Shown in pieces: positions 46,233 through 48,498 of a stretch of DNA of 64,000 nucleotides (position 1 is the first letter of the stretch; each line of letters opens with the position of its first letter). The notes under the pieces were generated by a model. It made no database searches. It had not been told where the DNA came from and saw only the letters and a list, made by a program, of their open reading frames with translations. The stretch lies in the NCBI GenBank assembly GCA_030324005.1, contig JARDVH010000025.1, forward strand, positions 45,031,504 to 45,095,503, given 5' to 3'. Both the position numbers and the translations under genes were made by a program. The DNA comes from Negaprion brevirostris (Eukaryota).

Positions 46233-46871
46233 TATAGCTTAAATCAGGGATTTACTTATCAGATTTACATATGTGTATATTTGTTTTGAAAAGACAGTTT
46301 TCACTGAATATGGACTTATTTGCACAATAAATTAAATAAATGTGAAATATTATTTAATATATGTCTTGGCCAACCTCTGATCTCCTGTATAATGCTCAGG
46401 TGTTAATTGCCCAATTTTTCCACAAAGTCCTCAGATTGTGGACAGTTATTTAACAGCAAAGTCAAGAATACCTCTAAATGAAGATAAAACAGCAATCCTG
46501 TTTCAGATCACTTCCTGATGCCTGTTTTGTTTACAATCCATGTTGTTTTAGTTCAGGTGGGTTTTTCCTTGTCTGACAGCTGTTGCCAGTGTGAATGGTA
46601 ATGTGGTCCTTTGTGTATTTAATCTCTGATAGTGCTCACACAAGAGAATTAAGACTGTCATCGTGCAAGTGCAGGTTTATGAAAGAACTAAACTGAAATC
46701 GATTTCTGGGAAATTCAAAATAATGCCCACAGGTATTTAGATGACCCACTGAAGTCATGTTATAATGACTTTAAAATGTAGTGGTAAGAGTATATGATGA
46801 CATTTACATGCTACTTTTAAATTACCAGTAACCTTAAATTCTCAGCAGTGTATATAAAGTTGACAAAAAAA

Positions 46872-46907
46872 CTTCTCGGCCTCTTGGTTAAGATCAAGTG
46901 TAGTATC
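46872..46907 (+). pseudogene. U2 snRNA 5' fragment (stem I and branch-point recognition sequence GTAGTA)
   Basis: CTTCTCGGCCTCTTGGTTAAGATCAAGTGTAGTATC versus U2 CTTCTCGGCCTTTTGGCTAAGATCAAGTGTAGTATC; the rest of U2 is absent. Confidence 0.92.
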
Positions 46908-47270
46908 GACATGCTGTACTTGATTGAAGTCATTAGGTTACATTTCAGCTTCTTTTGAAGCAATTTTTTAAAGCAGCATCTCGGCCTTTTGGCGAAGATG
47001 CAAATTAGATCAAGCCTTGGAGGTGGAGCTACACCTACTCCAATCAGCTTGGATCATGTAGGTCAAGCCCANNNNNNNNNNNNNNNNNNNNNNNNNNNNN
47101 NNNNNNNNNNNNNNNNNNNNNNNNNNNNNNNNNNNNNNNNNNNNNNNNNNNNNNNNNNNNNNNNNNNNNNNGCCCTGTCTTGTCAGCTTGGATCGGGAAT
47201 GTCCTAACTTGTTGGGACTCTGAATTGGCTTTAATTTGACTTGATTGGGCCGGAATAAAATTTTTTAAAA
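46872..47270 (+). mobile_element. U2 snRNA-headed retroposed insertion (candidate SINEU-like element)
   Basis: 46872-46907 matches U2 nt 5-40 at 34/36, and a second U2 5' module lies at 46976-47014. AATAAA at 47254 is followed by a T/A-rich tail. Flanking direct repeat AAAGTTGA(C/T)AAA at 46856-46867 and 47271-47282. A 100-N gap lies inside the element. Confidence 0.8.
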
Positions 47271-48498
47271 AAAGTTGATAAACATATTGAACTATTTTAA
47301 AAAAGAACTTCCCTTCCTACAATGAGTAATGTTTTGCACATAATGCCAATAAGAAATTGCCACCAAAATCCTTTATAATTTACTTACCGTTAAAAACAAT
47401 AGAAATGAAGAAGGCAGGAAAACTGTTTTGTCCCAAAATGTTAACTTCTTTCTACACCTGCTTGTACCAGTTGTACTTTGAATGTGAGTCATCAATACAG
47501 ATACTTAAAAGAACAGTCTTCTGCATTCATTTTCTTAAAATATGTTTCCAGGTTTCAAAATATTCTGTAAAATGTCTTGTTTAAATGTTACTGTAAGGTA
47601 CAGTGTTTTGGAAATCTATTTAGTTTGTGTAAAGTATTGGATTGCAATCTGTTTTCTAAGCCAAGTACATATTGTTGACAGCTATAATTTTCTTAGATCT
47701 GCTGTTTGCATTAAGAAAAAAATGACTGGTCTATAAAGCTGGATCTTTACAAATAATCAGCATTAATTTAGTTACTTTGCTAACTTAAGGGGTTCTCTCC
47801 AACCACGCCCCCCCCACCCCTTGGAAGATGTGTGCAAATCTTGAGCAGAATAAAGAACTTACAATATAACAGGATGCTGATTTTAATCCTACAAATGTTT
47901 TTGCAATCTGTGGTGTGGAAATGAGCAAGCTATATGTTTTTTTTATCAGAAAGAAAGAAAGGTGTTATGAAAATATTATTCATTTGTCCAACCTTGTGAA
48001 ATCACTGATGCTTAAAGAAAGCTTTTGGANNNNNNNNNNGTTTTCAGCTCTGGCACCTAATTGGGTCCCGCAAGAACCCTGTAATGCTCAAAACTAGAAT
48101 ATCTTAAGATTGATCTTAAATGTTGTAATCTATGTTGTTCCCCTTCCTCTCAAAGGACGCCAGTAAACTAGTCTATCGTTGTCTCTTTAATTTTGTTGTT
48201 TGTTTATTTAGCCTTGTATATGAACTAGTGAATTGATTCATTCGAAAAAGAGGAGGGGGATAGTTTTTGTTAATTATGTTTATGATGTTCGTATTGCTTA
48301 TCTGTGACAACATTGACCAATGAACTTTTGACTTGGAGATTGGAAAGGGATAAATTTGTTTTTTCTAAATAGATGAAGGAAATCTGATGGGGAGGTGGAT
48401 GATGGAGAGGTGGGTGGGTATATCATCAGAGGTGTCTGTCAGACTTTGAGCATAGGGATTCATGTTCCGATTGCAAGGAAGTAGAAACTTCTAATTAT

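Follow-up and report, generated by a model that had tools for sequence, protein, structure and literature searches.

The window, the whole 64,000-nucleotide stretch of contig JARDVH010000025.1 analysed from the shark Negaprion brevirostris, contains the exons of a leucine-rich-repeat gene (19669-43690, plus strand), which we take to be FBXL4, and, on the same strand and ∼3.2 kb beyond its last coding exon, a short interspersed element (SINE) headed by a piece of U2 snRNA. The AATAAA of the element lies ∼3.6 kb beyond the stop codon of the gene, and the one exon of the gene that was scanned gave no Pfam match. The element is non-coding, shorter than 500 bp and ends in a 3′ A tail; it measures 307 bp up to the AATAAA (∼310 bp), with the oligo-A tail extra. 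An Rfam U2 match of 46.6 bits over 46868-47059 is the sole gathering-level match within the window. The parts of the element are given in Table 1.

Table 1. Features of the U2-headed element, in window coordinates.
Feature	Position	Strand	Basis
Left target-site duplication, 12 bp	46856..46867	+	11/12 identical to 47271-47282
Four A's replacing U2 nt 1-4 (slight 5′ truncation)	46868..46871	+	Sequence
U2 head, nt 5-40, with stem-loop I and branch-point recognition sequence	46872..46907	+	U2 gene, Rfam
Module 1 remainder: head-pairing strand (predicted), small hairpin, T6/A linker	46908..46975	+	Fold of copy L007
T6/A linker of module 1 (T6 at element nt 97)	46964-46969	+	Sequence
Module 2, traced to the 5′ ∼85 nt of sister family Z	46976..47054	+	Alignment to Z
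ATGCAAAT octamer inside module 2	46998-47005	+	Intact in 46/54 copies
Module 3, traced to Z nt ∼32-150 (diverged U2 39 to ∼110), split by gap	47055..47253	+	Alignment to Z
100-N assembly gap for ∼15 bp	47072..47171	.	Gap-free copies
AATAAA (47254-47259) and T/A-rich tail	47254..47270	+	Sequence
Right target-site duplication	47271..47282	+	Sequence

The preliminary description of this locus, made from the letters alone, reported a U2 head, a second U2 5′ module and an AATAAA with a T/A-rich tail, enclosed by a 12-bp direct repeat, and all of these are present, the repeat with one mismatch. Compared with the genome's own U2 gene, the head is identical at 34/36 positions and the second 5′ piece (46978-47000 against U2 6-28) at 20/23. 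The octamer within module 2 is presumably the snRNA enhancer motif. The join across the assembly gap is correct, as gap-free copies at other genome loci (L004, L007 and L010) link the same two sides 15 bp apart, which rules out a mis-join.

The element is one copy of a dispersed family of ∼310 bp with ∼3,000 copies. A search of the 2.69-Gb genome with the 5′ part of the element brought up 3,080 candidates, and every one of the 40 that were scored is 92-100% identical. A 23-mer spanning the head/body junction has at least 2,279 genome matches (control 0) and a 21-mer from module 1 at least 2,903 (control 14), both counts being lower bounds for the copy number. These numbers rule out a one-off U2 chimera and confirm the multi-copy family that had been suspected; its SINEU-like nature is likewise upheld by the U2 head, the length below 500 bp and a structure that is fixed in thousands of copies. 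The window copy matches the majority sequence of the youngest subfamily at 192/200 positions (96%) and is thus a young copy.

Clustered alignment of 54 copies, grouped by eye with copy L008 and one edited copy left out, yields four successive subfamilies (A-D) whose mean identities to their own majority are 91.5, 93.0, 93.0 and 95.8%; the two oldest were drawn by targeted query, and their shares are not frequencies. The AATAAA is present in 23/24 D, 5/13 C, 0/8 B and 1/9 A copies and is a late gain in the SINE lineage. Target-site duplications (TSDs) were scored in the 56 copies, among 87 SINE-selected loci, that have both ends clear of gaps. A first, unanchored test came out near null; an anchored test separated the copies from the control, with scores of at least 7 in 15/56 copies versus 16/1,512 mismatched pairs. 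The L1/Tx1-type signature described earlier held up; 41 of the 56 copies are without a clear TSD. The 5′ starts of 56 other copies range from U2 nt 1 to 22, eight of them at nt 1, and the flanks of the 56 copies appear unrelated to one another. Six of the 87 SINE loci adjoin another family member, and L137 and L140 have a TSD between the neighbouring elements. At L193:976-3070, two SINE copies 1.8 kb apart lie inside one ∼18-bp direct repeat, as if they were one moved unit.

The body of the element had been called non-U2, which proved mistaken, since most of it derives from U2 through an older sister family, Z. Family Z is ∼215 bp long with an A/T tail, is met downstream of tandem clusters (e.g. 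L151:2003-2200, L197-L225), and has a motif with at least 2,483 genome matches (control 0); 28 copies are 91% identical to their majority. Z aligns with U2 nt 1-169 at 132/166 positions around a ∼20-nt insert, a result equalled by 0/300 shuffles, and is a diverged near-full-length U2 monomer in which regions resembling U2 stem IIb, the Sm site and stem III are retained. Modules 2 and 3 can in turn be traced to Z: the old-subfamily majority of module 2 matches it at 63/77 positions and the young-subfamily majority of module 3 at 92/115, with 98/121 for module 3 of the focal element (0/300 shuffles each), and window 47172-47260 compared directly with U2 39-191 is equalled by 1/300 shuffles. Read in this way, the element amounts to a multimer of U2, rich in hairpins, and the history of the source sequence runs from U2 to monomer (Z) to multimer to four subfamilies.

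The origin of module 1 past the head is less clear-cut. Tests for a fold-back copy or diverged U2 were weak (3/300 and 33/300 shuffles), as were those for an inverted copy of the head (3/300 and 17/300 shuffles; 36/300 against whole U2). Derivation of module 2 from antisense U2 stem IV was rejected as not significant (79/300 shuffles). Still older Z variants are seen in L051 and L117, and in L224 the 5′ piece of a Z copy resembles module 1.

The RNA of the family is predicted to be highly structured. The gap-free natural copy at L007 folds at z = -5.6 compared with shuffles, the predicted fold burying the branch-point recognition sequence in a 15-bp stem, and every subfamily is more stably folded than shuffled sequences (z -2.7 to -6.8). 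Along the subfamilies, a single local pair clearly changes in compensatory fashion (U-A > U-G > C-G); over the whole predicted fold, subfamily changes break 6-10 pairs, chiefly long-range ones. ADAR editing of duplex RNA is the established mechanism behind A-to-G hyper-editing, and the second SINE copy of L115 (L115:2477-2780) bears such a pattern, with 38/73 A's of the sense strand changed to G, the majority of them within the 5′ two thirds, and two T>C changes, versus 105/3,839 A>G in 54 other copies (at most six per copy). The copy looks like retrotransposed hyper-edited RNA, in which ADAR would have edited duplex SINE RNA ahead of reverse transcription, and it attests to an RNA intermediate.

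The enzymes for reverse transcription are likely those of a Tx1 LINE. Among the zf-RVT loci fetched, 29/30 belong to one dispersed Tx1 family with scored RVT_1 and zf-RVT domains. Its nearest homologues carry PF03372, PF00078 and PF13966; one is named transposon TX1 149 kDa protein and none is labelled Keno. The nearest named protein cluster includes a Leucoraja protein, and the reverse transcriptase shares 75% identity with one of the cluster's members, which fits a cartilaginous fish as host. The SINE and the LINE stand head to tail, within 80 bp of each other on the same strand, at 3/30 Tx1 loci and 3/87 SINE loci, and never on opposite strands, where chance is estimated to give ∼0.02 adjacencies per 30 loci.

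A second line of evidence for this partnership comes from U2 nt 39. Keno and Utopia LINEs insert with U2 resuming at nt 39, according to the available text of two papers (PMC4640811, PMC6136364). In this genome, an A-run directly 5′ of U2 nt 39 occurs at three places, namely a SINE tail (L163), a Tx1 tail (L166) and one next to a gap. At L129, a SINE tail is followed by another SINE that starts at nt 39; at L081, U2 1-37 and then a full SINE head lie within a U2-variant array; at L087, a Tx1 tail stands ahead of U2 46-191. The Tx1 junction at U2 is exact in L166 and lies close to nt 39 at two further loci, at nt 43 in L081 and at nt 46 in L087. The 3′ junction at nt 39, seen for one Tx1 and one SINE copy, and the reverse transcriptase and zf-RVT domains of the LINE are shared with Keno. 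Unlike Keno, the partner LINE lacks specific insertion at U2 38|39: only single SINE and Tx1 copies were found at the exact site, and U2 3′ sequence follows Tx1 in 0/22 3′ flanks of the zf-RVT-selected loci. Unlike Keno and Utopia, the SINE encodes nothing. The partner family is mostly dispersed and Keno-like with relaxed target specificity. The idea that the SINE family itself began as a Keno-site insertion, suggested by the head boundary, is weakened by the descent through Z and by the oldest subfamily, which departs from U2 identity at nt 37 rather than 38-40, so that the head boundary alone is no proof of such an origin.

L166:100-152 (minus strand) consists of U2 1-37, a bare T2A10 and U2 39-58, possibly an extremely truncated Keno-site insertion. 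An intact 1,273-aa endonuclease-RT-zf-RVT open reading frame occupies L090:249-4067 of a 5-kb contig; it shares 30% identity with the common Tx1 family, belongs either to a rare young element or to foreign DNA, and showed no link to the SINE.

A common 3′ end with Tx1, which the preliminary description had proposed to look for, is rejected, as the SINE and Tx1 3′ regions are without a match in 30 loci besides a short AATAAA-containing motif in the young SINE tail. It is very improbable that the family consists of internally deleted, non-autonomous Tx1/Keno elements or of many independent U2-LINE template-switch chimeras. Joints resembling template switches do occur, in L088, where U2 1-58 was added, and in L081, where the SINE is fused to a Tx1 fragment, but one uniform structure runs through thousands of copies and the body traces to U2.

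The element has no tRNA, 7SL or 5S head, Rfam finding only U2 over it, and stands outside the canonical Pol III SINEs (SINE1/2/3); the T runs within it speak against Pol III, as in SINEU. Three genome places contain a 29-mer of the U2 proximal promoter region (control 0): the intact U2 gene, L083, 18 kb from that gene, and L096, on another contig. At both L083 and L096, the U2 5′ sequence runs on into the SINE body. Their upstream regions have 276 bp in common at 82% identity, with the same tRNA-SINE insertion near -95. L083 is nearest the oldest subfamily (131/144) and L096 nearer the younger ones (43/48 vs 37/48, over 48 nt only). Upstream of dispersed copies, promoter sequence was found in 0/70, the best scoring 13/30 versus 21-22/30 among the promoter loci. 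Judged from these sequences, L083 and L096 are probable candidate members of a lineage of source genes with a U2 promoter. Both have decayed (∼9-10% from the subfamily majority) and are incomplete. Beyond nt 149 one of them is lost in a 4-kb gap; a Tx1 piece truncates the other at nt 48, and the 8 kb downstream contain no remnant of SINE or U2. The assembly is fragmented and gappy, with tandem U2 arrays likely collapsed, and yielded no intact young source gene.

On balance, we regard the family as probably a U2-built retroposon that is inserted by Keno-like Tx1 enzymes and transcribed from a few source genes with a U2 promoter. RNA polymerase II would start at U2 +1 of promoter-linked loci; the RNA would fold into a hairpin with its branch-point sequence buried and be reverse-transcribed in trans by Tx1 ORF2; insertion would take place at A/T-rich nicks with a weak preference for the U2 site; and dispersed copies would be promoterless and dead on arrival. 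A further step is possible and is put forward tentatively, namely a self-renewing cycle of promoter capture in which the promoterless U2-headed retroposon rides the Keno-like LINE into U2 genes at 38|39. The SINE head would anneal seamlessly with the target, and the Pol II promoter of the U2 gene would make the next master copy. If true, such a cycle would mean that the promoter of an snRNA-derived SINE had been located for the first time and that SINEU arose a second time among vertebrates, independently, in an origin common to several cartilaginous fishes.

A rival account keeps the Tx1 motor and treats L083 and L096 as dead Keno-site insertions in U2 paralogues, the real sources being read from unrelated flanking promoters, a mode of transcription that has been proposed for the crocodilian SINEU. 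Both loci are decayed, the SINE and Tx1 do insert in U2 sequences (L081, L163, L166, L087), and 5′ extensions taken from flanks are described for crocodilian SINEU-2 in the available part of one paper (Kojima, PMC4494074). In the shark family, however, no 5′ extension is common to the 70 copies compared with the promoter, and the starts stop at nt 1. L083 and L096 have the same derived upstream insertion yet correspond to successive subfamily types, and the proximal 80 bp of L096 are closer to the U2 gene (68/80) than those of L083 (58/80). Moreover, the insertion in the U2-variant gene of L081 doubled the head, whereas L083 and L096 each have a single seamless head. Reading from flanking promoters is therefore rather unlikely.

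The copies could also be processed pseudogenes of a functional variant-U2 gene or another host non-coding RNA gene instead of a selfish SINE, much as ID elements relate to BC1 as pseudogene-like copies to their source RNA. The stem IIb, Sm-site-like and stem III regions kept by Z, the stable subfamily folds and the compensatory series would fit a host RNA, but the source took on at least five successive forms and duplicated its modules, a turnover that would be unusual for conserved host RNAs, and the promoter-linked loci have decayed. Such a source is improbable.

The family is SINEU-like and, set apart by the described layouts, probably independent of the crocodilian SINEU. SINEU-1, -2 and -3 are known from crocodilians, and Kojima (2015) found none elsewhere, according to the available part of that paper (PMC4494074); searches of the open literature, to the exclusion of subscription journals, Repbase Reports and Dfam, yielded no shark or other non-crocodilian SINEU. 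The two systems share a U2-derived head, a length below 500 bp, an A tail, an internal oligo-T, thousands of copies, repeated 5′ addition and duplication of snRNA pieces, TSDs that are present or absent, tandem insertions sandwiching a TSD (here L137) and, probably, a Tx1 group close to Keno as the mobiliser, to which the nt 39 junctions and the adjacency point indirectly here. Unlike SINEU, the present family belongs to another vertebrate lineage (cartilaginous fish), has a near-full U2 1-169 monomer with a ∼20-nt insert rather than an internal deletion, shows no U1 part in the focal element, and has candidate source loci with a U2 promoter. No common transposon target was seen in the flanks of 56 copies; crocodilian SINEU families have a preference for Mariner-N4_AMi (PMC4494074, available part). 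The same paper reports no promoter for SINEU, and the available parts of two papers leave its transcription in the absence of an internal promoter an open question (PMC4494074, PMC5786205).

Other small-RNA retroposons provide further comparisons. The A/T linker and successive subfamilies recall Alu; the parent RNA, U2, differs in being driven by an external Pol II promoter, where Alu has an internal Pol III promoter. An altered small-RNA monomer that gives rise to a multimer likewise parallels the monomer-to-dimer passage of Alu (FAM/FLAM, cited in the available part of PMC4494074). Tailless and chimeric U2 retropseudogenes (PMC4494074, same part) are similar in that U2 5′ fragments are copied by LINE machinery, and pieces of this kind are found in this genome (L088 and the L163 flank). 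Unlike them, the family is one fixed composite with thousands of copies and diagnostic subfamily changes.

A second SINEU-like lineage with a readable history makes the question of snRNA-SINE transcription testable, and the identified loci that carry U2 promoter sequence, together with a partner LINE that still reaches the Keno site, bear on the transcription of SINEU itself. As U2 is associated with Keno-related Tx1 elements in crocodilians and in this lineage alike, LINEs that target U2 would seem to spawn U2 SINEs repeatedly. The young dispersed copies, which number in the thousands, are possible presence/absence markers for sharks and rays. In a sequencing-run index, at least half of the words are present in 14 rows, which represent 8 studies and 6 coded organisms; one row may be the source sample.

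The genome also harbors variant U2 genes. Three tandem U2-variant genes (L036-L038, L190:7000-8170) are spaced at 492 bp, show 84% identity to the main U2 gene and have a different spacer; Tx1 and SINE insertions are present in related units at L081 and L166. The U2 genes of L032-L034 have high Rfam scores yet are 81% identical to the main U2 gene, and represent another variant or foreign DNA.
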